Source: Ostreococcus lucimarinus
Taxonomy: Eukaryota
Assembly: GCA_000092065.1 (NCBI GenBank)
Contig: CP000596.1
Reading direction: 5' to 3' (one strand)
Length of the DNA stretch: 64,000 nt
Below are positions 15,400 to 63,752 of this stretch, one piece after another; the first letter of the stretch is position 1, and each line of letters begins with the position of its first letter. Both the position numbers and the translations under genes were made by a program. Under the pieces are notes generated by a model. The model made no database searches. It was not told the DNA's origin and worked only from the letters and a program-made list of their open reading frames with translations.

Positions 15400-18111
15400 A
15401 TGGTGGAAAAGGCGGGCGCGCGAAACGGCGTCCGCGTCAGCGCCGATGATCGAATGATGCGTCGCGACGCGACGACGCGACGCGGCGACTCGGCGCGCGC
15501 GATGGCGACGGACGCGCGCGCGAGGGCGACGCGCGCGGTGTATCTGCGCGAAACGGTGATCTCGAAGCTGCGATTGGCGCGGACGCTGAGCGATACCGCG
15601 GTGTATAAATCGTACGCGCGGCGGTCGGCATTGGCGATGAAGTACACGCTGACGATTTATGAGCAGCGGAAGATGCTGTTCTTGGCGGTGGCGCACGCGA
15701 TGGCGACGATGGTGGTGTGGTCGCACTTTTTCTTGGTCAAGTATCGCGCGACGGCGAAGGTGCCGCGCGGGGCGAATTTGTATTGGTGGAAGCGACTGAC
15801 GCCGCCGTTTGAGTTCGGGGCGATGCACGCGATTTTGTTTCAGATGGCGCTGCTGCCGCTGACGATGGCGCGACAGAGCGTGGCGGCGCTGTCGACGACG
15901 TCTTTCGGAAGGAAGTTTGTCCCGCTGCACAAAGTCGTGGCGATGCACATTCACCTCGGGTACGTCATGGTTTCTTTCGTGTTCGCGTCGACTATTTTGT
16001 TCTTCGTGTTCTTCGGACAAGGTTGCGCGCAGCAAAAGTCGGGTAAAGAGCCGACGCCGGGCGGGCAGCACACGTTTTGTCACAAGATGACGAGCGAAAT
16101 CATGGCCACCGGGTTGGCGATTATGGGATGCTTGCTGCTCGTCGCGGTGACGTCGTACGCGAGAAATCGAATCAAGTACGAGATCTTTTACTACGTTCAC
16201 CACTTCGTATTCATCATGTTTGCGCTCGCAATCGCGCACACGCTGGATGATAAGGCCCGACGCGGACAGGTGCGCTCGCAAAACTTTAAGTGGTTCTCCG
16301 CATCGCTCGTATGGTACTTGACGGACCGATTGCAAGCGTCGTTCAACATACGAGATTGTGACGTCGTGGAGTGCGTCGCGCTCGGTGACGACGAGCCGGA
16401 GTCACGTAAAGTGGTGCACTTGCGCATTGTGCGCCCGGAGACGTTCATTTTTCGTCCAGGTCAATATGTCTTTATCAACGATCGCAACATCGATTACACG
16501 TGGCATCCGTACTCGATTGCGTCGTCACCGCACGAGGATACGATTGACTTTTACATCGAAGTCATGTCGACGAGCAGAGTCGATGGCGCAAATAGCTGGA
16601 CGAATAAGCTCTGGCGCGACGCCCGGGATGGGTTTGTATCCAAAATGCGCATTAATGGACCGTATGGCACCGGATTTAACGACATCGACGACAAGACGGA
16701 AATCGTGGCCATCGGCGCCGGGACGGGCATCGTTCCGATGCTTTCCTTGGCGAAAGCCAAGGTGAACGAGTTCGTACGAATGAATGCTCAAGCGCGGTTG
16801 TCTGACTTGGCCGCCAGAGACGCCAAAAATCGCAAGTTCGCGGACAATTATTTCAAAGAGTCTTACACGCTGAAGGACTTCGTCTATAAACAGCTCGGCC
16901 TCGCGAAGAAGGAATCGAAGGCCAGCGAAATGTGGGCGAGTCGAAGCGTTCAAGACATATTTTTGCATAAGCAGTGCGCTTGGCGCGAAGCGAAGTTGCG
17001 AGAAGAAGGTGATAACGCCACGAAACGTCATTACGAGAGACTTCTCACGAAGAATGTCTTGCACGAAGTCGTGGACCTCACGCAAATCGGGTTCCCGCTG
17101 CTCGACTTAACCTCCATCGCGTTACTCCTTTCTTTCTCGAAAAACTTTGCAATCGCCACGCAAGCCATGCGAGAAGTCCCACTGTGGGCTTTCTTCGTAT
17201 GCCACTGCTATTTCTTCGTTCACTGGGTGTTCACCAGAATGAACGCCCCTATTTGGTGGATAGATCTCATCTTCAACGCCACGTCAACCGTGGCGTTCAC
17301 CGCCTGGTACAACTTGATTCGTGAAGATCGTAAGGAATGGAATGTCTACATGATTTGGGCGTTCGCCGCACTCTCGGTGTACCGAATCGCTCGAATCTCC
17401 AGTGACGTTCTCTTAACAGGCACTCCTGGCTCGCGCGCCGTCAACGCGTATCTCGAAAAAACGGGCGACGCGACGAGCGTGACTGAAAAGTTCACGCTCA
17501 TCTTCATGACGCCGCAGGTTGACTTCTGCCAAATCCTCTGGCGTGACTTGGACTCTCTTCATCAATCGATTACAAAGAATTATGGCGAGCAAGCTTCGCG
17601 TGTTTTCGACATTCAAGTCTATTGCACGTCGAGAGACTCGGCGGAAAACGAAGAATTGAAGAAGCGCGTCAAGGGCACTTCGCTCGGCGCCGCCGGCGCG
17701 CTTCATATGGAGCGCCCTGACTTGGACGAGATCACGTCTCGCCCCGTTCTTCAACAAGTGCTAAAGGATCAATTTACCGGAGAGGACAGACCATCGTTCA
17801 CGGCCAGCCTCGTCGCCTTTTGCGGCAGCACGCAGCTCGGTTCAAAAATTGCGCTCGCCGTCGTTCGCTCGAGAGCTCGCGTGAAAGCCTTCACCGAAAA
17901 TCACTCCATCGAGTTTCTTCAAGAAAACTACGGCCAAGCGACGCCCGCGAAAGATCGCGGTCGCGCCTCTTTCAAACAGGTCAGAGTCGAGCCTGCACCA
18001 ACTGTATCCGGCGTCGTCGGCAACATCGTAAACGTCGGCCGCGCCGCGGCCAACGTCGCCGCCGTCGCGCTCAAGACCGTCGGACCGAAGACGACGAAAA
18101 CGTCCAATTGA
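15400..18111 (+). CDS. NADPH oxidase / ferric reductase (NOX/FRE) family membrane flavocytochrome
   Basis: 903 aa with a ferric-reductase TM domain carrying His-containing helices, an FAD-binding region (HPYSIASSP), an NAD-binding region with a long insertion, and a C-terminal ..AFCGSTQLGS... No EF-hands are seen. It sits 134 bp head-to-head with the 14-3-3 gene. Confidence 0.7.
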   Translation: MVEKAGARNGVRVSADDRMMRRDATTRRGDSARAMATDARARATRAVYLRETVISKLRLARTLSDTAVYKSYARRSALAMKYTLTIYEQRKMLFLAVAHAMATMVVWSHFFLVKYRATAKVPRGANLYWWKRLTPPFEFGAMHAILFQMALLPLTMARQSVAALSTTSFGRKFVPLHKVVAMHIHLGYVMVSFVFASTILFFVFFGQGCAQQKSGKEPTPGGQHTFCHKMTSEIMATGLAIMGCLLLVAVTSYARNRIKYEIFYYVHHFVFIMFALAIAHTLDDKARRGQVRSQNFKWFSASLVWYLTDRLQASFNIRDCDVVECVALGDDEPESRKVVHLRIVRPETFIFRPGQYVFINDRNIDYTWHPYSIASSPHEDTIDFYIEVMSTSRVDGANSWTNKLWRDARDGFVSKMRINGPYGTGFNDIDDKTEIVAIGAGTGIVPMLSLAKAKVNEFVRMNAQARLSDLAARDAKNRKFADNYFKESYTLKDFVYKQLGLAKKESKASEMWASRSVQDIFLHKQCAWREAKLREEGDNATKRHYERLLTKNVLHEVVDLTQIGFPLLDLTSIALLLSFSKNFAIATQAMREVPLWAFFVCHCYFFVHWVFTRMNAPIWWIDLIFNATSTVAFTAWYNLIREDRKEWNVYMIWAFAALSVYRIARISSDVLLTGTPGSRAVNAYLEKTGDATSVTEKFTLIFMTPQVDFCQILWRDLDSLHQSITKNYGEQASRVFDIQVYCTSRDSAENEELKKRVKGTSLGAAGALHMERPDLDEITSRPVLQQVLKDQFTGEDRPSFTASLVAFCGSTQLGSKIALAVVRSRARVKAFTENHSIEFLQENYGQATPAKDRGRASFKQVRVEPAPTVSGVVGNIVNVGRAAANVAAVALKTVGPKTTKTSN

Positions 18112-33737: not shown

Positions 33738-35501
33738 CTAAGAGGACGCGCGCGCGGCGTCGAGATCGAGATCGCGGACGAAACGACGTCGTTCGTCTGG
33801 GTCGTCGACGACGGCGAGCGCGGCGACGGCGTCTCTGAAATCGTGCGCGACGACGTACGAGGGAAACCGATCGACGTCCTCGGTGATTGAATCCTCGCAC
33901 GACGCGTCCAGGGTGATCTCGTAGATGACGTTCTGGGAGAAGGTGTTCATTCCGGGCGCGCGCTCGCGCGCGCATCCGGTGAGATAGGCGAAGATCAACC
34001 GCAGGATGGCTTGGTGGGAGACGATCAAGACGGGTTCGGTGTACGACTCCATCTCTTGGATGCACGGCTCGAGTCGGGAGATCAAGTCGAAGTAACTCTC
34101 TCCGCGCGGATAGCGGTAGCCGATCTTATCCATCGAGCGCAAGTACGCGGCCTGCGGGTTCTTCTCCACGATCTCTTCGGGCGTCATGCCCTCGCAGTCG
34201 CCGGCGAAGATTTCGTCGATGTTGCGATAGACGCGCGGGGACATTTGCTCCCACTCGCCGTTGTGCACCGTCGGGTGCTCGATGTTCGCCGCCGTCGCGA
34301 TCGTGCGCAGAAGCGATGACGTCCACAGACGCGCTCGAACCGTGCGCGGGGTCTCGCACCACCGCCCTTCGCCGTCGTCGCCGTCGTCGTCGCGACGCTC
34401 CATGCCGCAAATTTTTTCCAGCGCAAAGCGACTGAGAATTTCCGAAAACGCCACGCCCTTGGCGGTGATCCCGGAGTTCCCCCCCAGACGTCCCGTGACG
34501 TTGTACTCTGACTCTCCGTGCCTGCACAGATAAATCTTGTGCGCCGTCGGGTGCGTGGCGGTGAGAAACTGCACGATGCGTTGAGGCAAGTACGCGCGCA
34601 TCTTATTCGTCTGCACGCGCTCGCCGTAATTGTACAGCTTTATGTACGATAAATCATCCTCGGAGCCGTCCTCTTGCAGCGTGACGTAAAGTTTTCGATA
34701 CTCGTCGAGCCGTCGTCGCCACGACTCCTTCGCCGCCTCGATCTCGTCCTCGCGCACGCGCCCGTTGCGCGCGTCTCTCGCCACGCGTTGCGCCAAAACC
34801 TCCTCCACCAGCTCCTCCCTCGTCAGCGTCGTCTCGATGAAAATCGTCTTCACCTTCATCCTTCGCGGACCGGTGCTGTCTAAATCTCGCTCTAAATCCT
34901 CCAACTCTTTCAAGATCGCCCTGCGCCGCTCCTTGCTCGTCCCGCTCCACGTCTCGTAAAACGTCGCCGACGCGTCGCTCGAGTACACCACCGCCACCCG
35001 TCCGCTGTCGACGTGTTTCGCCGACGCCTCCTTCGCCTCGATCCCGTACTCCGTGCACACGTCCGTTATCGCGTCTCCAGATCTCAAGAAATCTCGCAGA
35101 TTATTCACCAGCGACGACGTCGCCGCGTCGCCTCGATGTCCCGCGTACGCCACGTCGAACGCCCGACACCGCGCGCCGTGGAAAAACCGCAGGTACCGCG
35201 TCAATCGCAGCGCGATCGTCCGCTTCCCTCGCAGCGGCAGTCCGACGAACACCAGCACGTGTCGCTCGCCGATGTTTCCCGCCAGCGCCGCGATCGGCGG
35301 CGGCACCGTCGTCGGCGCGGGATTGTGCGCGCGCGCCGTGAGCAAATCTTCCATCGATTTCGCGTACAATCGCGGCGACGACGCGCGATCGGCGTCGTCG
35401 GCGCGCGCGTCGCGCGTCGCGCGCGCGTCGTCGCCCATCGCGAGCTCGAGCGCGCGTCGGCGCGGTCGCGACGACGCGTCGGCGTCGTAAAGTCGCGTCA
35501 T
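33738..35501 (-). CDS. 6-phosphofructo-2-kinase / fructose-2,6-bisphosphatase
   Basis: Kinase P-loop VFVGLPLRGKRT, then a histidine-phosphatase domain with the RHGESEYN motif and a downstream catalytic His. 587 aa. Confidence 0.85.
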   Translation of the reverse strand: MTRLYDADASSRPRRRALELAMGDDARATRDARADDADRASSPRLYAKSMEDLLTARAHNPAPTTVPPPIAALAGNIGERHVLVFVGLPLRGKRTIALRLTRYLRFFHGARCRAFDVAYAGHRGDAATSSLVNNLRDFLRSGDAITDVCTEYGIEAKEASAKHVDSGRVAVVYSSDASATFYETWSGTSKERRRAILKELEDLERDLDSTGPRRMKVKTIFIETTLTREELVEEVLAQRVARDARNGRVREDEIEAAKESWRRRLDEYRKLYVTLQEDGSEDDLSYIKLYNYGERVQTNKMRAYLPQRIVQFLTATHPTAHKIYLCRHGESEYNVTGRLGGNSGITAKGVAFSEILSRFALEKICGMERRDDDGDDGEGRWCETPRTVRARLWTSSLLRTIATAANIEHPTVHNGEWEQMSPRVYRNIDEIFAGDCEGMTPEEIVEKNPQAAYLRSMDKIGYRYPRGESYFDLISRLEPCIQEMESYTEPVLIVSHQAILRLIFAYLTGCARERAPGMNTFSQNVIYEITLDASCEDSITEDVDRFPSYVVAHDFRDAVAALAVVDDPDERRRFVRDLDLDAARASS

Positions 35502-45242: not shown

Positions 45243-45650
45243 TTAATCTCTACCCTCCTCGCGGCTCTTCGCGGCGGAGATTTCTTCGACTTCTTCCCAG
45301 GCAGCCGGGCAGTCGTCGGTGCACTGCTTCGCCGCCGCGATGGCGGCTTCCAACGCCGCCTCCATCTTTTGCATGCGCGCCGTGTTCACCTTCTTCGTGA
45401 CTTCCTTCATGCCCGCGGCCGCGGCTTCGATTTCCTTCAACGTCTTCGCATCGACTTGACCCGCCGCGCGCGCCGCGGAGATCGTCTTCTTCGTCGATTC
45501 GATGAACGCCTTGTCCGCCGCCGAGATTTCGACCTCCTTCATGGAGTCTTGTCCCTTGTCCTTGGACGCCGCGCTCAATTCCTCGACGTCGTCCCAAGCG
45601 ACCGCGCAATCATCGACGCACTCCTCCGCCGCCTTCAGCGCCGCTTCCAA
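45243..45650 (-). CDS. CP12-like protein with two tandem C-x3-C-AW(D/E)xVEE(L/I)SAA modules (N-terminus probably extends upstream)
   Basis: ..AAEECVDDCAVAWDDVEELSAASK.. and ..AAKQCTDDCPAAWEEVEEISAAKS.. resemble the CP12 AWD-VEEL core, each preceded by a Cys pair. The start codon at 45650 is TTG, and the frame stays open further upstream (R-rich, transit-peptide-like). Confidence 0.45.
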   Translation of the reverse strand: MEAALKAAEECVDDCAVAWDDVEELSAASKDKGQDSMKEVEISAADKAFIESTKKTISAARAAGQVDAKTLKEIEAAAAGMKEVTKKVNTARMQKMEAALEAAIAAAKQCTDDCPAAWEEVEEISAAKSREEGRD

Positions 45651-46268
45651 TCGTTCGCTCGCGTCCGTCGCTCTCGCGACGACGCCGGCTCTTCCCGCGC
45701 GTCTCGTCGTCGTCTGTCGTCCGCGTCGCTCGCCTCGTCAGTCGTCCCGTCCCGTCCCGTCCCGTCCCTCGTCGTCGCGTCGATCGCCGACGACCCCTCG
45801 CCTGCGTCGCTCGGTGCCTCCGTCGCGTCTTCCGGCGCGTCGCGTCCATCGCCGTCGTCGTCCGCGCGCGCGATCGATCGATCGATCGATCGATCGCTCG
45901 ATCGATCGAGCTTATCCTAGATCGCGTTCGCGCGCGCGAATGCGCCGCGTCTCGCGCGCGTCGCGTCGCGGTTCGAGCGGTTCGCGCGGTCGCGTCGCGG
46001 TCGTCGTCGTCGCACCTTGCGCGAGAATCGCGTCGACGCGGGGCGCGCGATCGCGGCGGTCGTCGTCGTCGGCGTCGCGAGCATGGCGGGCGCGGTGTGC
46101 GGGGGCGGGCGCGGCGCGGCGCGTTTACGGCGACGTGGGGGGTGTGTTGATGGTGGTTTCGAGTGTTCGAATATGGGCGCGTGGGGTTAGGGTTTTGAGT
46201 GGCGCGCGGTCGATCGGTCGGTCGGTCGGTCGTCTACGATTCGTGAAGTGGGTGTCTACTGGTCGCGT

Positions 46269-48602
46269 CTACGCCTGGCGGTCGATCATGTACGTCACGG
46301 CGGTGACGACGTCGGCGGCGCGCTTGACGACGGTCTTCTCCATCTCGCTGGCGTACGGCACGGGGGCGTCCTCCATGCACAGACGCATCACGGGGGCGTC
46401 GAGCTCGTCGAAGAGGTTTTCGCCGACGAAGGCGCTCACGGTGGCGCCGACGCCGCCGGTGCGCGTGGATTCGTCGAGGATGACGAGCTTGTGCGTGCGC
46501 TGAAGACTGGTTTGGATGGTTTTCCAATCCACGGGCTTCATGCACGTGAGCTCGATGAAGTCGGCGTCGATGCCCTTGGTGTTGAGCTCCGCGATGGCTT
46601 CCTCGGTTTCCTTGACGCCGTGGAGGTAGGTGACGATGGTGACGGCTTTGTCGTTCTTGACGGATTCGTCGCTCGCCAAGTGGTGAACGGTGGACTTGTG
46701 GAGCGGGAGGAAAGAATCTGGCGTCACCGGTCCGCGAGATTTCATCATCTTCACCGGAAGCAACAGCACGCCCGGGCCGTTGTCGCGAATCATAGACTTG
46801 GCCAAGCCGTACGCCTCTTGAGGCTTGGACGCCGAGCAAATCTTCAAGCCGGGAATGCCCATGATGTACGCGTGGAACGGTTGCGAGTGTTCGGCGCCGA
46901 GAGATTGGTTCGGGGCGGTACCACCGGCACCGATGACGGTCATGGGCATTTGAAATTGCCCTCCAGTCGTCGCGTACGTGTTCCCGGCGGACGAGAGCTC
47001 AGCCATGCCGTAAATACCAAAGTTGGCATTCATGAGCTCGACGATGGGGCGGTAGCCGTTCATGGCCTCGCCCAAAGCCTTGCCCATGAAGTGACCTTCG
47101 TCAATGATTTCATCCGCCGCGCGAAGCGTGCCGAAGGCTTGCTGCGTGTTGGCTGGAATGTTGTAAGAAGAACCCGCTTGGAGATCTTCAGCGTGCGCCA
47201 CGCACGTCGGGTCGCGCAACATTTCTTCAAGAATGGCGAGGTTGACGGCGTCACCGATGGAGATCCCGCGCGGATCCAAGCACATCGCGCGAAGAGCTTC
47301 GATGCGTGCCTTGAGCGCGGCGAGCGTCTCCGCAGGCACGATTTTCTCCGTCACAGCCTCCGCCGAGGCGAGACCTTCGACGGGTTCGCGCGCGGCGTAG
47401 TCGACTTTGCCGCTCGGATCGGGGTACTCGAGCTCGGCAGCCAAGTTGGCGGGCGGCGGCGGAGAAGCATCGGCGAACGCCAAAGCGCGCTGAACTTCTT
47501 CCTTAGCCTTGGCAGTCTGTGCCCCGAGGTCGATGCGCTTGGCGTCGGCAGACTCTTCGAAAATCTTAATCGGGTCGCACTCGGCGCGCGCCCAACGCTT
47601 TTCATCCTTGCGGTTGCGCTCGTGCTCCGGATCAGCCGGAGAGTGCCCGTTGAATCGGAAAGTGTGCACTTGCAAGATCGCCGGACCTTTCGTGCGCACG
47701 TGCTTGATCGCTGCGCGACCGACGCGCAAGACATCTTGCACGTTTTGACCATCGACGAGCACGCCCGGAACGCCGTAGTGCTTGCCTTGGTTGAAAACCT
47801 CTTGGTTCGTCGCGACATCCTTGGTGAAGGTGTTGATCGCGCGACCGTTATCGATCACCAAGAAAAGAATCGGCAAGTTCTCCTTCGCCGCCGCGTTCAA
47901 GCACTCCGCCATGCGCCCGTTTTGGGCGCCACCTTCGCCGACGAAGACGACGGTGACGCGGTCGTGCGCGTCATCGCGCCCGAGCATCTTGTCGAGAACG
48001 ATGGATCGCGCCGCACCGACCGCGTACGGCAATTGCTCCGCGACGAGCGCCCATCCACCTTGAAAGTTCGTATCCATGTCGTACACGTGCATCGACCCCC
48101 CGGTACCTCGGCACGTGCCACCGTCCTTACCGAACAACTCCGCCATGACGGCGCCGCTATCCACGCCGCACGCCAAGGCGTGGCAATGGTCGCGGTAGTA
48201 GGAGTGCTTCAAATCATCCTTACGGATCGCGTCTGCCAGGAGCGCCGGAATCGACTCTTGACCGTTGTCAAGGTGCATGAAACCGCGAATCTTACCCGCC
48301 ATGTACGCTTGGTTGCACTCGTTTTCAAAGTCCCGGCACAACTGCATCGTGTAATACGCCTTATTCAAATCCTCATCACTCAAGTCCTCGCATCGCTTCA
48401 ACTCCTCGTCCGTCGCCCCAAACTCTTCCTTCAACACTTGCTTCGCCTTATCCCACGGCGTCTCGATGCGAAACCGCTCCAAATTCGCCGGCGGTCCCTT
48501 CGTCTTCGTCGCTCCCGCGCGCGCCGCCGTCCCTCGTCTCGCCGTCTTCGCGCCTCGCGCGACGTGCGCGCTCGTCGCGGTCGCCCGCATCACTCCTTGC
48601 AT
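46269..48602 (-). CDS. pyruvate (2-oxoacid) dehydrogenase E1 component, alpha and beta subunits fused in one ORF, with N-terminal presequence
   Basis: N-terminal half = E1 alpha (..YYTMQLCRDFENECNQAYMAGKIRGFMHLDNGQE..FVGEGGAQNG..HSPADPE..). C-terminal half = E1 beta (..NTYATTGGQFQMPMTVIGAGG..LKICSASKPQEAYGL..DELDAPVMRLCMEDAPVPYA..). 777 aa continuous. The 887-aa antisense + ORF is spurious. Confidence 0.8.
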   Translation of the reverse strand: MQGVMRATATSAHVARGAKTARRGTAARAGATKTKGPPANLERFRIETPWDKAKQVLKEEFGATDEELKRCEDLSDEDLNKAYYTMQLCRDFENECNQAYMAGKIRGFMHLDNGQESIPALLADAIRKDDLKHSYYRDHCHALACGVDSGAVMAELFGKDGGTCRGTGGSMHVYDMDTNFQGGWALVAEQLPYAVGAARSIVLDKMLGRDDAHDRVTVVFVGEGGAQNGRMAECLNAAAKENLPILFLVIDNGRAINTFTKDVATNQEVFNQGKHYGVPGVLVDGQNVQDVLRVGRAAIKHVRTKGPAILQVHTFRFNGHSPADPEHERNRKDEKRWARAECDPIKIFEESADAKRIDLGAQTAKAKEEVQRALAFADASPPPPANLAAELEYPDPSGKVDYAAREPVEGLASAEAVTEKIVPAETLAALKARIEALRAMCLDPRGISIGDAVNLAILEEMLRDPTCVAHAEDLQAGSSYNIPANTQQAFGTLRAADEIIDEGHFMGKALGEAMNGYRPIVELMNANFGIYGMAELSSAGNTYATTGGQFQMPMTVIGAGGTAPNQSLGAEHSQPFHAYIMGIPGLKICSASKPQEAYGLAKSMIRDNGPGVLLLPVKMMKSRGPVTPDSFLPLHKSTVHHLASDESVKNDKAVTIVTYLHGVKETEEAIAELNTKGIDADFIELTCMKPVDWKTIQTSLQRTHKLVILDESTRTGGVGATVSAFVGENLFDELDAPVMRLCMEDAPVPYASEMEKTVVKRAADVVTAVTYMIDRQA

Positions 48603-48999
48603 CGTTTGAGGTTTCCTTCGAGTTCTCGCGCGCTCGTTTCCTGCGTTCGCGCGTCGATCGCTCGTCAGTCGACGGATAACGCGCGCAAGATTGTCCCCGC
48701 CGCGATCGAGATTCGCGTCGCGCGCGCGCGCCGCGCGCGTCGCGGCGCCGCGCCGACCGCGGCGTCGGCGCGAGCGCTCGATTCGCGCGCGTTCGCGTCG
48801 ACCGTTCGCGTCGAGAGTCGCGCGTCGCGCGCACCGAGACGACGAGAAGTGCCGCGCGCGCCGCGGAATGCGAGGTTTCCGCGAGTCAAAGTCCCCGTCG
48901 CTGAGTCCTGACTCGTCGATTGGACGGACGGGATAAAAAGCGGCTCGAAAAGCGCTCGCGGGACGCGCGACGACGCCCGCGCGACGGACAACACGATTT

Positions 49000-49837
49000 C
49001 TACACGATGGCTAATGAATTAGAGTGCACGAAACGCACGGCGTAAAAGATCCACGCCAACGGACCGACGATCCACACGAGGTTGGCGGCGAAGACGACGA
49101 CTTTGCTCGTCGCGGACGCGCCGACGTCGTAGCGATTGTAGCAATAGTTGCAATAGTACATCACGGTGCCGTAAAACATTTGATAATTCATCACGATGGC
49201 GACGATGCCGACCGAGCGCGGGGTGAAAGACGCGATCATGGGGACCTCGGGCCAGGACGTGACGGCGATGGAGAGCGCGACGGTGGGGACGAGCATGGTG
49301 AAGCCGTTGCCGACGTCTATCCAAAAGCTCCACGACGTGTGCTGGACGTACGACGGATCGAGACTGGCGTACTGCGCGAACACGATCGACCAGTGCTTCA
49401 GCGACAGCGCTTGCGCGAGCGTAATATCTTCAAATAAACATAACGGTCTCGGGAGCACCTGCGCGCGCGTTCGTCATCGCGCGTCGTCAGTCCGTTCGTC
49501 GTCATTCGTCCCGTTCAAACGTCGCCGTCCCGCGCGCGTCCTCCGCGTCTGCGCGTCCGTTCGCCTCGCCATCGCGCACCCTGTTCCCGAACTTTTTCAG
49601 GTACCCGCGGTGTAGCTTTTGCACGTTCGCGCGGTGCGTCCAGAGCGCGATCTCCCACACGCATATCAGCGCGTTCACGGCGTTGAACAGTAACAACAGC
49701 GCCAGCTTCGGGTTCGCCTCGCGCGCGAGCGCCTCGACGACGCTCGCGCTCGGCGGCGCGCGCGATCGCGCGTCGGCGCACACGAACGGGAGCCAGAGCG
49801 TCGCGACGAAGCCGCAGACGTAGACCGCGGCGAGCAT
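49000..49837 (-). CDS. EBP/EXPERA-family-like multi-pass membrane protein (sterol isomerase-like), two exons (~49580..49837 and 49000..49458)
   Basis: Exon 1 MLAAVYVCGFVATLWLPFV..NALICVWEIALW..KKFGNR |GTGCGCGATGG, ~121-nt intron, acceptor cgcgcgcag|. Exon 2 VLPRPLCLFEDITLAQALSLKHWSIVFAQYASLDPSY.. parallels EBP ..[24 protein letters not shown].. Four or more TM helices. Confidence 0.4.
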
Positions 49838-50074: not shown

Positions 50075-51163
50075 ATGGCGTTTTCGCCGACGGCGCGCGC
50101 GACGCCGGATGGGTTGGACCTGGTGCTGTTCGACGTCGACGACGACGACGGTGGGTTTGATTTTAGCGACCACGGCGAGACGGGGACGGACGACGTGCCG
50201 TTCGACGCCGACGCGTGGGACGACGTGCTGAATGCGTTCGACGCGTATCGCGAAGACGCGAGCGCGTTCGACGTCGACGCGTTCGGATGCGCGGCTTGGC
50301 CGGACTTGGACGGTGAAGCGAAGGACGACGATGATTTCGATGGTTACGATGCGTCGCGGCGAAACGCGGCCAAGGCGGTGCGCGAACACGTCGCGAGCGC
50401 GCTGAGAGACGCGCTGAGCGCCTGCGAGAGCGAATTGAGCTGGGCGAGCGACGAGGGCGAATGGGAGACGAAGAGACGCGAAGCGGAGGATGCGGCAAAG
50501 GCGATCAAGTACGTGCGATCGCGCGTGTACGCGCGATTGCGTGCGCTGGGAGCGTCGACCGACACCGCGACGACGAATCGTTTGAAGATGTTGCGCGACA
50601 TGTTCGTCGCAGAGCTTCGAACGTTCGCCGCGCGCGCCGACGCGCTCGAGCGCCGCGCGGCGGAGACGCTCGTCTCGAAGAACTTATGCTTGAATCTGCC
50701 CGATCCGAAGTTGATGTTGAAGAAGAAGTTCAATACCACACTCACGAGTGTGCTTGATTCGTTCGACGCGGCCTTCGAACACGTCGTGGCCAAGGCCAAG
50801 ACGCCCTCGACCAAGGCGCGCGCCGCCGCATCTCGACAATCTGAACAAAATTCGGGTAACTCAAACGCCGTGGAGCAGCAAACCGCACAGGGAAGACACG
50901 AGACGCACGCGAAGAAGATCTTGTCCGCGTGGCTCTGGGATCATTTCTACCCGACGGACGAGCGCTTGAAACCGATTCCGACGCGCGCGGAAAAAGAAGA
51001 TCTCGCGCGCCAGACGGGATTGACGACGACGCAAGTGGGCGACTGGTTCGTCAACGCTCGCGCACGTTTATGGAAACCTTACATCGAAGGCTTAATTCGC
51101 GGCGTGTATAACGACGCCACGGTGAAGAAAGCGCTCGACTTGCAAGCCGAGGCGGCGGCGTAA
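50075..51163 (+). CDS. TALE-class (BELL-like) homeobox transcription factor
   Basis: Homeodomain ..ILSAWLWDHFYPTDERLKPIPTRAEKEDLARQTGLTTTQVGDWFVNARARLWKP with the 3-aa loop extension and WF-NAR-RLWKP signature. Acidic N-terminus. Confidence 0.75.
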   Translation: MAFSPTARATPDGLDLVLFDVDDDDGGFDFSDHGETGTDDVPFDADAWDDVLNAFDAYREDASAFDVDAFGCAAWPDLDGEAKDDDDFDGYDASRRNAAKAVREHVASALRDALSACESELSWASDEGEWETKRREAEDAAKAIKYVRSRVYARLRALGASTDTATTNRLKMLRDMFVAELRTFAARADALERRAAETLVSKNLCLNLPDPKLMLKKKFNTTLTSVLDSFDAAFEHVVAKAKTPSTKARAAASRQSEQNSGNSNAVEQQTAQGRHETHAKKILSAWLWDHFYPTDERLKPIPTRAEKEDLARQTGLTTTQVGDWFVNARARLWKPYIEGLIRGVYNDATVKKALDLQAEAAA

Positions 51164-61119: not shown

Positions 61120-62658
61120 CTAATTAAATCCCGCGATGACGTTTTCGGTGCCCCACTTGCCCCAGTCCGGGAGCGCGGCCGACGCCTCGTTCACGGCGTC
61201 GACGAGGGCGCGCACCAAATCGTTGTTCATGCCCTTCGGCGGGTCGGGGATCTTTTTGGGAGGGTACGCGTGGGAGTACGAACGCTTGTCGAAACGCCAG
61301 GCGCCGATTTTCCCCGGAGTGAAGACGCCGTCTAAGTCGTAATCCATGCCGTAGGTGAAGTGGATGGAGATGAAGTCGCCGACGGCCTTGTCCCACGGCG
61401 GCTGCGCCGCCATTTGCGGTCGCAAATCGTGCGAGATCCCGAGCTTGTACGCGGCTAACGTGTATCCGTACATCTCGATCACCCATCCCCACGCCGCTTT
61501 GGCGTCTTTGTCTTTTTGTAGCGCCACCGACATCTCCGCCCACGCCGGGGCGAGACGCTCGAGGTCGTCTTTTCTAATGAACACGGGCGAGCTGCCGATA
61601 CCGTCGATATCCTTCATCTCTTCATCCGTGATTCCCGGCAAAAACCGCCTGACGATGTCCGGTTTCTCTTTGGGATTGATGTAAAAGAATGGAAACGCCG
61701 CCGGCGTGTCGCCGCGCATCAAGTTTGGCACGGGTTTAATGTACAAGTGGTCCGGCTCCGCCATCAAGATGAAGTCTTCTTCGATTTGCGGACACTTTTC
61801 AAAAAACTGCACGAACGCAAACGGGCGGCTCAAGACCACGAACCCTAACTCATCCTCTAATCTATCCACGATGCACGTCGGAATTTCGTCCTCTAACCCA
61901 TCCGCGACGTCGTGAAGCACGCGCGTGAACCCGCCCATCTGCCCGTTCGGTCCTTGCGCGGCTTTTTGCTTTTGAAAGTGATAATACATCACCCGCGCCT
62001 GCCACCCCTGATACACCGCATTATTCGTCGTCATCACCACGTGAAACTTTCGCGACGGATCGGGATCGCCCCGCATGTCATCCTGCACGTATATCGATCC
62101 GCTCGTCCACGGATTACCGCCGCCCTCCGTCCCCGTCGTCATCGTCGCGCGCGCCTGCTTCTTCAACCAACACGACTTGTGAGGTTGTCCCAGGCACCCG
62201 CTCTCGAATCCACACCACACGAACACCGTGCATCCTTCGTCTCGCATCTCCACGCACGCGTCGTGACACGCCTCGGCGCTGTCTTTCAGGAACTTGTCTC
62301 CCCACTTGACGACGTCGCCGCCGGCTTCGAAGCCTTCGCGCGGTTGAAAGCCGCTCAGCTTCAACGTCTCCGCGCGCGCGCGACGCGTCGTCCGCGCGCG
62401 CGGTCCGACGCGCGCGGTCGCCACCGACGACGGTTCGGCCTCGCTCGGCGATTCGGGCGCGTCGACGCGCGCGCTCGACGTCGAGCGCGCGTCGAGCGGC
62501 GCATCGATGGATGTCAAAGTTTCGCGCGCTGTTCGCGCGCGCGACGGCGGACGAGGCGGTGATTTCACCGCGGGGTAACCCGTGAACGCGATGTACGCCA
62601 AGCACAGCGCGAACGCGGCGCGCGCGAGCCCGCGACGGCGAGGTTTCGCCGCCGGCAT
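61120..62658 (-). CDS. hydroxyproline O-arabinosyltransferase (HPAT, GT95-like) with signal anchor and N-terminal Cys-rich module
   Basis: Start MPAAKPRRRGLARAAFALCLAYIAFTG (type-II anchor), then a Cys-rich segment (..ACHDACVEMRDEGCTVFVWCGFESGC..SCW). HPAT core blocks follow: ..YQGWQARVMYYHF.., GPNGQMGGFTRVLH, ..FILMAEPDHLYIKPVPNL..AAFPFFYINPKE.., ..GWVIEMYGY.., ..AQPPWD.., ..HFTYGMDYD.., ..IGAWRFDKRSY.. Confidence 0.75.
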   Translation of the reverse strand: MPAAKPRRRGLARAAFALCLAYIAFTGYPAVKSPPRPPSRARTARETLTSIDAPLDARSTSSARVDAPESPSEAEPSSVATARVGPRARTTRRARAETLKLSGFQPREGFEAGGDVVKWGDKFLKDSAEACHDACVEMRDEGCTVFVWCGFESGCLGQPHKSCWLKKQARATMTTGTEGGGNPWTSGSIYVQDDMRGDPDPSRKFHVVMTTNNAVYQGWQARVMYYHFQKQKAAQGPNGQMGGFTRVLHDVADGLEDEIPTCIVDRLEDELGFVVLSRPFAFVQFFEKCPQIEEDFILMAEPDHLYIKPVPNLMRGDTPAAFPFFYINPKEKPDIVRRFLPGITDEEMKDIDGIGSSPVFIRKDDLERLAPAWAEMSVALQKDKDAKAAWGWVIEMYGYTLAAYKLGISHDLRPQMAAQPPWDKAVGDFISIHFTYGMDYDLDGVFTPGKIGAWRFDKRSYSHAYPPKKIPDPPKGMNNDLVRALVDAVNEASAALPDWGKWGTENVIAGFN

Positions 62659-62732
62659 CGCGGCGCGCTGTGCGGCGCGACGCGCGAGACGCGAAGACTG
62701 GAGATTACACGCGCGACGCGCGCGCGACGAAT

Positions 62733-63752
62733 CTACGACGACGATCGCGGCGACGTCGGCGATGCGATGACTGGTAACTCGACGTCCGACTCGCGACCGG
62801 CGACGCCGGCTTCGACCGCCGAATCTCTCGCGGCGGCGGCGGCGCGCGCGGCGGCTTCGTCCGACTCGGCGATTTCCCTCGCGAACGTCTTCGCGCTCTC
62901 GTCCTCGCTCACTCGCGCGTCGAAGCGCACGCGCGGAGGCCCTATTTTCGCGAACCACACCTCGTAGCAATTCTTCAACACGCTCCCGGTGTTGTACGGA
63001 TTCGCTCGCCAACCGTGCGCGTCTCTAAAATTCTCGTACGTCGTCTGATTCGTCGACACTAAATACGCGTGAAAACAACTCAACGCCCCCACGAACACGA
63101 ACGCCACGAACGCCACGAAGAACACCGCGATCGCCGCCCCAGATTTCTTCATCCCTCGATAGCTCACGCTGTATCCGCACGTCGTCATCGTGAACGCGCA
63201 CAGCGCCGTCGTCCCGTACGTAAACATCAAAAACGCCCTATAATTTCTCTTCCCGATCGTCGTCCCCGTCCACGGGCAGTGATGATCGAACTTTTCCACG
63301 CAATCGTTGCACACGCTGCAGTGATGCGCGCGCGGCGGTTGGAAGTACCCGCACGTGTCGTTCCACCTCGTCGTCGTCGTCCGTCCCGTCGTCGCCACCG
63401 TCGTCTCCCTCGTCTTCCCTCGCATCGAGCTCGTCCGCCCATCGCGCGCCAATCGCGGCAGAATTCCGGGATCCGTCAGCGCCGTCTTCGCCAACCATCC
63501 CAGGCACCACGCCGGCAGCGCCACGCCGCACGCGAGCGTCCACGCGCCGAGTTTCCGTCGCAACAGCGGTTCGATGACGACCAGAAGATTCACGAGCGAC
63601 GGCGCCGCGATCAGCGCCGCGGTGCACAGCGCCGCGCGCGGCCGCGGACCGGCGACGCATCGTCCATCGCACGCGAACGTCTCGTTTCCGGGCCAGCGCT
63701 CGTGCACGCGAGGCGACGGCGCGGCGATTTCGGAATCCGGCGACCGGGACAT
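62733..63752 (-). CDS. DHHC-type protein S-acyltransferase (palmitoyltransferase)
   Basis: ..CGYFQPPRAHHCSVCNDCVEKFDHHCPWTGTTIGKRNYRAF.. (DHHC-CRD) with four TM helices. Start at M 63752. Its stop is 75 bp from the HPAT start codon. Confidence 0.8.
   Translation of the reverse strand: MSRSPDSEIAAPSPRVHERWPGNETFACDGRCVAGPRPRAALCTAALIAAPSLVNLLVVIEPLLRRKLGAWTLACGVALPAWCLGWLAKTALTDPGILPRLARDGRTSSMRGKTRETTVATTGRTTTTRWNDTCGYFQPPRAHHCSVCNDCVEKFDHHCPWTGTTIGKRNYRAFLMFTYGTTALCAFTMTTCGYSVSYRGMKKSGAAIAVFFVAFVAFVFVGALSCFHAYLVSTNQTTYENFRDAHGWRANPYNTGSVLKNCYEVWFAKIGPPRVRFDARVSEDESAKTFAREIAESDEAAARAAAAARDSAVEAGVAGRESDVELPVIASPTSPRSSS

Follow-up and report, generated by a model that had tools for sequence, protein, structure and literature searches.

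Does the uninterrupted reading frame on the minus strand at 46269..48602 of a 64,000-nucleotide stretch of Ostreococcus lucimarinus DNA (contig CP000596.1 of assembly GCA_000092065.1; this whole stretch is hereafter the window) truly encode the alpha and the beta subunit of a pyruvate dehydrogenase (PDH)-type E1 component in one polypeptide of 777 amino acids and, if so, to which of the 2-oxoacid dehydrogenases does it belong and where in the algal cell would it act? Here we report that the fusion is genuine and no artefact of assembly, and that it recurs in a family of algal proteins. We also consider it probable that this nuclear gene specifies the E1 of the plastid pyruvate dehydrogenase complex (EC 1.2.4.1-type) as a single chain that is imported into the chloroplast and works as an (alpha-beta)2 homodimer.

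A genuine fusion of E1 alpha and E1 beta

The open reading frame (ORF) begins at an ATG that is the first start codon downstream of the preceding stop, ends with the stop codon at 46269-46271 and has no in-frame stop among its 777 codons. Pfam recognises three domains in the product, E1_dh at residues 84-383 (2e-46), Transket_pyr at 447-618 (4e-16) and Transketolase_C at 649-759 (2e-27), so that all the domains of a heterotetramer-type 2-oxoacid dehydrogenase E1 are present, carried by a single ORF in place of separate polypeptides. Residues 74-396 align with residues 31-348 of the 365 of human PDH E1 alpha, and residues 447-770 with residues 5-326 of the 331 of human PDH E1 beta; both halves are therefore complete, connected by about 50 residues. 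The GC content at third codon positions lies between 0.64 and 0.94 in every 50-codon block of the ORF, including junction codons 351-450, and this evenness indicates that reading frame and coding periodicity are unbroken across the alpha/beta boundary. The initial annotation, which had read the ORF as one fused gene with a complete alpha and a complete beta subunit, is borne out on both counts.

From the N-terminus, and all on the minus strand, the coding sequence starts with a presequence (residues 1-36, 48495..48602), a putative chloroplast transit peptide by its composition, its weak conservation and the low confidence of its predicted structure. It is followed by a conserved, family-specific segment (residues 37-73, 48384..48494) with the motif PPANLER..W50.., which lies outside the human E1 alpha alignment and in which R43, W50, L57 and F61 are invariant in the family. 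The alpha half proper (residues 74-396, 47415..48383) is the diphosphate-binding (PP) domain for thiamine diphosphate (ThDP), as delimited by Pfam, TIGR03182, the human E1 alpha and Foldseek. Between the two regions of homology lies the inter-subunit linker (residues 397-446, 47265..47414), which opens with LEYPDP..DY, and beyond it are the pyrimidine-binding (Pyr) domain of E1 beta (residues 447-618, 46749..47264), placed by Pfam Transket_pyr and the human E1 beta alignment, and the C-terminal transketolase-C domain (residues 619-777, 46272..46748), which has a free C-terminus and aligns end to end with both the human and the Geobacillus E1 beta. In characterised E1s this last domain is the one that docks E2.

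The same architecture was found well beyond Ostreococcus. A database search returned more than 770 homologues, and almost all of the best 120 were fused, about 740-860 aa long and 63-99% identical, among them those of Bathycoccus, Tribonema, Nannochloropsis, a pelagophyte and Chrysoparadoxa. The cluster of the fused E1 at 90% identity has 249 members, drawn from assemblies in ENA, JGI, Logan, Tara and MGnify and in many cases 773-786 aa long, and further searches added the fused E1s of Prasinoderma and of the diatom Pseudictyota. Complete transcripts, the check that the initial annotation had called for, carry the fused ORF as well: MMETSP entries marked 'type:complete' encode it in Fibrocapsa, Florenciella and Calcidiscus. 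The family set used below comprises 149 full-length fused sequences (148 collected beyond the window protein) and extends over Mamiellophyceae, Prasinoderma, ochrophytes including a diatom, and a haptophyte, with 63-70% identity between the green and the red-lineage algal proteins. Across the 149 sequences the linker is conserved at 51-75% per 20-residue block, and the LEYPD..DY at its start is invariant.

The locus itself is syntenic in Bathycoccus (L009, OZ117109.1), where a TALE homeobox gene, the fused E1, a small ORF and a dCMP deaminase gene follow one another, and the wider shared order, which corresponds to 28709-59494 of the window, takes in, further out, a UAA transporter, a pentatricopeptide repeat (PPR) gene and Sec7. 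Two details of the Bathycoccus locus differ. An Aa_trans amino-acid transporter gene stands beside its E1 gene, and the corresponding interval of the window holds only a 152-aa ORF (49000-49458) with no family match. The annotated Bathycoccus protein (P0012; L009 10001-12408) is without 12 residues of the conserved 'D(A/L)DFIELTCMKP', and the translation of the locus is not colinear there, which may reflect either a small intron or an error of the annotated gene model.

The fusion could in principle be an artefact, two neighbouring genes merged by the assembly or a frameshift or stop read through at the junction. Nothing direct speaks for this, although two entries (P0185 and P0180) show that GC-rich assemblies of the fused E1 gene can be prone to error. 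We looked at both as possible unfused or divergent intermediates, P0185 being an alpha-only protein of 50% identity, and rejected them, as both are frameshifted calls that decay into out-of-frame text rich in Arg, Pro and Ser. Such entries mimic 'alpha-only' or truncated proteins, and could mislead analyses of presence and absence or of fusion and fission. Against an artefact stand the recurrence of the same junction in hundreds of independent assemblies, the complete transcripts, the conserved and structured linker, the unbroken codon periodicity and the syntenic Bathycoccus locus. The probability that remains for it is negligible.

Type of E1, active site and predicted structure

Both halves resemble PDH more closely than any other 2-oxoacid dehydrogenase. 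Among the sequences of the PDB, the alpha half scored 147 bits with human PDH, 82 with the Thermus 2-oxoacid dehydrogenase, 65 with the human branched-chain 2-oxoacid dehydrogenase (BCKDH) and 63 with Geobacillus PDH, and the beta half scored 147 with human PDH, 131 with Thermus, 123 with Geobacillus, 93 with Pseudomonas BCKDH and 84 with human BCKDH. The top NCBIfam models agree, being TIGR03182, PdhA y-type (275 bits), for alpha and PdhB (209 bits) for beta. By sequence comparison, then, PDH is a nearer match to the fused protein than BCKDH or the other 2-oxoacid E1s are, and the PDH-type label that it had been given on first reading stands for both halves.

The human mitochondrial PDH E1 (alpha2beta2; 1NI4, 3EXE, 6CER) is the best match of known structure for each half, at about 147 bits each, and it keeps with the fused protein the Tyr/Arg pair, the Asn and the catalytic His of alpha as well as the Glu and the His of beta. 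It differs in that identity is about 30%, its chains are separate members of a heterotetramer, and it is a mitochondrial enzyme of the alpha-proteobacterial lineage. The Ser of human regulatory phosphorylation site 1 is kept in the fused protein (Ser321), and those of sites 2 and 3 are replaced (Glu328 and Phe259).

The roles of the active-site residues can be mapped from what is established for human PDH E1, in which a pair of histidines serves the reductive acylation of lipoamide. By alignment, that pair (alpha His263 and beta His128 in human) corresponds to His320 (codon 47643..47645, directly followed by that of Ser321) and His572 in the Pyr domain (codon 46887-46889); around His320 the protein reads 'FRFNGHSPADP' and the human one 'YRYHGHSMSDP'. 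The Glu that activates N1' of ThDP is Glu502, also in the Pyr domain (codon 47097-47099). His110, Tyr136/Arg137, Asn252 and His320 of alpha and Glu502 and His572 of beta are invariant in 149/149 sequences. The ThDP/Mg2+ motif (residues 222-258, 47829..47939) reads G-E223-G...I-D251-N252-G-R-A-I-N-T and was aligned with 'GDGAANQG...ENNRYGMGT' of human E1 alpha, the canonical form being GDG...ENN. We considered whether GEG in place of GDG marks an inactive or unusual cofactor site, and rejected the idea: position 223, the acidic Mg ligand, is Glu in 141/149 sequences and Asp in the other 8, the diatom included, and these eight GDG members imply that either acidic residue is tolerated there. Glu in place of Asp at this ligand is also accepted in BCKDH E1 alpha.

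An AlphaFold2 model of the fused E1, built on a 108-sequence alignment after a 14-sequence predecessor with a mean predicted local distance difference test (pLDDT) score of 68 had been set aside, reached a pLDDT of 83 and a predicted template modelling score (pTM) of 0.83. Residues 1-34 are disordered in it, the presequence having a pLDDT of about 35, and the extra helices 50-61 and 65-72 ahead of the alpha core are predicted at 87-97. Helices 411-421 and 424-442 of the linker are predicted at 87-95. The description of this segment as a short linker thus holds in that it joins the two halves, but in the model it appears to be more than a tether, namely a structured two-helix connector. In Foldseek comparisons the alpha half lay on human E1 alpha with a root mean square deviation of 2.2-3.0 A and a target-based TM-score (TMt) of 0.75-0.78, and the beta half on human E1 beta with a TMt of 0.80. 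The whole-chain model resembles single-chain ThDP enzymes, with a TMt of 0.65-0.67 against transketolase and a query-based TM-score (TMq) of 0.57-0.58 against SucA/KGD, a likeness that fits a homodimeric (alpha-beta)2 working unit, as the model would suggest. Transketolase, DXS, SucA/KGD and the homodimeric AceE-type E1 all have the PP-Pyr-C order in one chain, as the fused E1 has; they are set apart by an identity of 12-17% and by other substrates, the fused E1 being a secondary fusion of the heterotetrameric type.

Targeting and ancestry of the fused family

The presequence, taken at first as a sign of an organelle in general, can be narrowed to the plastid with the help of the orthologues. 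Residues 1-36 are rich in Ala, Arg, Thr and Gly, poorly conserved, free of Asp and Glu and of net charge +8, and all 33 of the 33 complete Mamiellophyceae-type N-termini are alike in having no hydrophobic signal and a basic, acid-free extension of 36-45 aa rich in Ala, Arg, Thr and Ser. In the orthologues of the other, non-green algae, a signal-peptide-like region is found in 54 of the 91 complete N-termini, and many of these regions are followed by ASAF|AP, ADAF|S, ALAF|S, AIAF|S or VSAF|S, the diatom having ...CTAPSSAF|TIAP. A signal peptide with a Phe-motif transit peptide behind it is the classical bipartite plastid signal of algae with complex plastids; the endoplasmic reticulum (ER) signal peptides and ASAF-type motifs of the complex-plastid orthologues therefore indicate plastid targeting. 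A plastid location of the family is well supported by these N-terminal sequences, and we infer the same for the Ostreococcus protein itself from orthology and N-terminal composition.

An Arg/Ala-rich, acid-free N-terminus is a composition typical of mitochondrial presequences too, and the protein might accordingly be a mitochondrial E1, of PDH or of another 2-oxoacid dehydrogenase, with a mitochondrial targeting peptide. We regard this as improbable, given that the complex-plastid orthologues use the plastid route of ER signal peptide and Phe-containing ASAF-type motif, that both halves group with the cyanobacterial/plastid type while the human mitochondrial type (32% identity) lies further out, and that the fused family has signature motifs in common with plastid-type subunits.

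This grouping comes from neighbour-joining trees with 200-300 bootstraps, for which the alpha and beta domains were separated from all sequences collected. The fused algal family is monophyletic in 200/200 and 300/300 replicates, and is in this respect phylogenetically informative, as had been expected of it. The eukaryotic plastid/apicoplast-type E1 beta is the sister group of its beta half in 191/200 replicates, and the plastid-type E1 alpha that of its alpha half in about 60%; once named cyanobacteria and a red-algal plastid gene had been added, the alpha half was sister to the clade of cyanobacteria and plastids in 193/300. Bacterial fused E1s and human sequences lie further out in the trees than the plastid-type subunits. 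Identities are 36-40% with cyanobacterial/plastid alpha, 29-36% with bacterial fused proteins and 32% with human, both halves being 35-40% identical to the plastid type, and the motifs GG[WFY]A..E, GHS.ADP.E, E.MN and GAEHSQ are common only to the fused family and the plastid-type subunits.

The nearest relatives of both halves are thus the PDH E1 of plastids and cyanobacteria (PdhA/OdpA and PdhB/OdpB), as in the chloroplast complexes of Chlamydomonas and land plants and the apicoplast PDH of Toxoplasma. The two kinds have the same three domains, catalytic residues and signature motifs, and a plastid location would hold for both. They differ in that the plastid/cyanobacterial enzyme consists of two genes and polypeptides with GDG/ENN and DTPIxE, and the fused E1 of one with GEG/IDNG and DEIIDE, as well as in the additional N-terminal helices, the two-helix linker, the PdhA/PdhB scores below cutoff and the long branch outside the crown that distinguish the fused protein. 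Thus, as far as the sequences tell, the fusion may have arisen in or beside the plastid PDH lineage and been followed by accelerated divergence.

Fusion as such is less rare than a contrast with separate genes in most bacteria, plastids and mitochondria would make it seem. A phmmer search of 1.84 billion cluster representatives gave one full-length match at 63% identity (plus fragments) and then none above 35%; below this gap come numerous fused proteins of about 640-680 aa, together with unfused PdhA and PdhB. Of the nearest relatives from outside the family, 86 are proteins of about 650-680 aa fused independently of it; the sole one named to an organism comes from a Leptospirillia metagenome-assembled genome (MAG) and carries the annotation 'PDH E1 subunit beta', while the label of a further cluster is '2-oxoisovalerate dehydrogenase E1 component'. 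One of the 86 (P0194, 673 aa) has the reverse order, beta and then alpha, so E1 subunits have been fused more than once and in both orientations.

A recent horizontal gain of such a bacterial gene might be suspected from the abundance of fused E1s among the nearest relatives, one of them from a Leptospirillia MAG, and from their single chain of alpha followed by beta, as in the algal protein. The bacterial proteins differ, however, in their identity of only 29-36%, their scores near or above the PdhA/PdhB cutoffs, their shorter or missing linker and their lack of a presequence, and they are never the supported sister group of the family, which implies that the algal fusion is independent. A pattern scan of prokaryotes (GTDB, one genome for each of 185,579 species) likewise found no bona fide family member, only two tiny MAG contigs of 3.8 kb and 571 bp, and the longer of these, with its ochrophyte-like N-terminus and an adjacent eukaryote-type kinase, is best read as mis-binned algal DNA and was not accepted as prokaryotic. 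With the fall from 63% to at most 35% identity in the search of representatives added to this, a bacterial transfer is very improbable. The two contigs, from MAGs assigned to 'Gammaproteobacteria' (L007, JAYPBG010000357.1; 61% identity) and 'Alphaproteobacteria' (L008, JAPOJR010000330.1; 81%), encode fragments of the fused E1 and are probably eukaryotic contamination of the bins. Contigs that carry relatives of 761-786 aa are eukaryotic, with split exons in the neighbouring genes and with KH, SPRING1 and TPT genes. Taken together, the identity gap, the prokaryotic scan and these contigs indicate that the family, by its sequences, is a tight and exclusively eukaryotic (algal) clade.

Proposed function, genomic setting and significance

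How would a single-chain plastid E1 work? The product would be imported into the chloroplast, its presequence of about 36 aa would be removed, and two chains would pair as an (alpha-beta)2 homodimer, the counterpart of the ordinary alpha2beta2 heterotetramer. The cofactor, ThDP-Mg2+, would sit between the PP domain (Glu223, Asn252, Tyr136/Arg137) and the Pyr domain (Glu502), and pyruvate would be decarboxylated on ThDP. His320 of alpha and His572 of beta would then assist the transfer of the hydroxyethyl/acetyl group to the lipoyl-lysine of a plastid E2 bound on the free C-terminal beta domain, with acetyl-CoA and NADH as the yield for plastid fatty-acid synthesis. The fusion would set the stoichiometry of the subunits at 1:1, and one targeting signal would suffice. 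Pyruvate as the substrate and the dependence on an E2 are what we infer from the sequence.

Several observations weigh against this proposal. The NCBIfam scores are below the cutoffs of the models, 275 bits for TIGR03182 against 393.85, and 209 against 321 and 204 against 454 for the PdhB models NF006667 and NF008854, whereas these models give the other fused E1s 320-424 bits, so that those are ordinary PDH E1s that happen to be joined. Substitutions fixed in the family lie beside the cofactor, namely GEG, IDNGRAINT (canonical ENN), DEIIDEGHF in the Pyr domain (canonical DTPIxE) and NFGIYG, and could mean an altered substrate or partner. In the trees, the cyanobacteria and plastids form a clade without the fused family in 300/300 replicates, and the placement of the family comes from neighbour-joining distance trees, in which it has a long branch. 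No genes for E2, E3 or lipoate and lipoylation stand near the fused E1, which is uninformative for a eukaryote.

The most serious competitor is a neofunctionalised paralogue of the plastid PDH E1, present beside an ordinary split E1 and acting on another 2-oxo acid (such as 2-oxobutyrate, hydroxypyruvate or one with a branched chain), on acetoin, or as an E2-free decarboxylase or carboligase. The scores under the equivalog cutoffs, the long branch outside the cyanobacterial/plastid crown and the fixed substitutions close to the active site and its ThDP, among which DEIIDE stands for DTPIxE and IDN for ENN, would all be consistent with it. The extreme conservation between green and red-lineage proteins also suggests a specific, constrained role. 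Moreover, two PDH pairs of separate alpha and beta subunits have been reported for Phaeodactylum, a further burden on our proposal, besides a BCKDH pair and one more protein, named 'Dehydrogenase, E1 component' (G46387), the last not traceable in the literature. From the two split pairs it follows that diatoms at least may hold both fused and split forms. The idea that Phaeodactylum gene 20183 is the diatom fused orthologue was rejected, since it was published as a separate E1 beta paired with 55035. On the other side, both lipoyl-transfer histidines are invariant and the complete E2-docking C-terminal domain is kept, similarity is clearly highest to PDH and not to BCKDH, and neither of two queries found a split plastid-type alpha of Mamiellophyceae, ochrophytes or haptophytes among its best 120 matches. 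Red-lineage plastid genomes outside Rhodophyta also lack odpA/odpB, so that an imported E1 is needed. We therefore hold the paralogue to be an unlikely explanation, though one to be taken seriously, and prefer the single-chain plastid PDH E1.

Whether that E1 replaces the split genes or is added to them depends on those two queries. A green plastid-type PdhA (P0264) retrieved core chlorophytes, Pedinophyceae, ulvophytes and streptophytes up to land plants at about 60% identity, and no split plastid-type PdhA of Bathycoccus, Micromonas or Ostreococcus was among its best 120 matches; the biggest cluster of split PdhA has 58 members (Picochlorum), as against 99-413 in the clusters of the fused gene of Mamiellophyceae. 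The separate plastid-type alpha contigs L011 and L012 belong to Picochlorum. An apicomplexan-type PdhA retrieved apicomplexans, Vitrella, cyanobacteria and a red alga, with no split PdhA of an ochrophyte or haptophyte among the best 120. Among red-lineage plastid genomes, odpA/odpB are encoded in the plastid in Rhodophyta only (PMC4810238), hence other red-lineage algae must import their plastid E1. These findings suggest that the fused protein may be the plastid E1 of the groups that carry it. The apparent absence of split genes, however, is drawn from the best 120 matches and not from searches of whole genomes, and contigs of GC-rich picoeukaryotes (L010 and L013) do carry a separate plastid-type alpha. 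We thus put the chances that the fused gene replaces the split plastid E1 at roughly even for Mamiellophyceae and at less for the other groups. The boldest form of the proposal, in which Mamiellophyceae, Prasinoderma, ochrophytes and haptophytes have no plastid E1 but the fused one, and the fused gene has displaced the split pdhA/pdhB of cyanobacterial origin and has passed between green and red-plastid algae by endosymbiotic or horizontal transfer, is a tentative one, which we rate as rather less probable than its opposite. Bolder yet, the fixed changes in its active site may mark a new substrate or partner.

The surroundings of the gene are ordinary green-algal nuclear DNA of 63% GC, with genes in the window for a PPR protein, Utp21, an XPD-like helicase, a NOX/ferric-reductase-like protein (15400-18111, plus strand), a bifunctional 6-phosphofructo-2-kinase/fructose-2,6-bisphosphatase (33738-35501, minus), a TALE (KNOX/BELL-type) homeobox protein (50075-51163, plus) and a hydroxyproline O-arabinosyltransferase with a PAN domain (61120-63012, minus). 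Directly downstream of the E1 and on the same strand, the ORF at 45243-45650 has a weak CP12-domain match (1.8e-06) and two 'C..C..AW(D/E)(D/E)VEE(L/I)SAA' repeats, resembling a tandem CP12-like regulator of the Calvin cycle; a small ORF occupies the equivalent position in Bathycoccus (L009 12890-13855). Two plus-strand ORFs, one of 887 aa antisense to the E1 (46248..48911) and one of 333 aa overlapping it (45502-46503), were dismissed as spurious, both being rich in Arg, Gly and His and without a Pfam match. Long spurious antisense ORFs are typical of coding DNA of 63% GC, and naive ORF callers could report them.

We found no description of a fused algal E1 family in the full-text literature that was searched, and the three enzyme fusions catalogued for diatoms by Kroth et al. 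(2008) do not include it. In diatoms some fusion proteins may undergo cleavage (PMC2173943). In the databases its members bear generic names such as 'pyruvate dehydrogenase', 'Transketolase-like pyrimidine-binding domain-containing protein' and 'TPP-dependent pyruvate/acetoin dehydrogenase alpha subunit/...'. An alpha-beta fusion of E1 as such is known; what makes this one worth pursuing is that the clade is broad, stands apart from all other E1s and may provide the only plastid E1 of major phytoplankton.

In algae, carbon enters fatty-acid synthesis through the plastid pyruvate dehydrogenase. Should the fused protein turn out to be merely an extra paralogue, the finding would be a routine refinement of annotation. 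If the proposal holds for a large part of the phytoplankton of the sea (Micromonas, Ostreococcus and Bathycoccus, ochrophytes including diatoms, and haptophytes), omics annotations and reconstructions of metabolism that expect E1 alpha and beta as two genes would mis-score or miss the plastid complex, and there would be one gene instead of two for the engineering or knock-down of carbon flux into lipids. As a rare genomic change, the fusion would also be a clean marker by which to follow genes that pass between green and red-plastid algae, and it would be a natural experiment in which a heterotetrameric ThDP enzyme became a transketolase-like single chain. If it is the sole plastid E1, it would offer a single-gene handle on the acetyl-CoA supply of the plastid and a shared derived marker linking these lineages.

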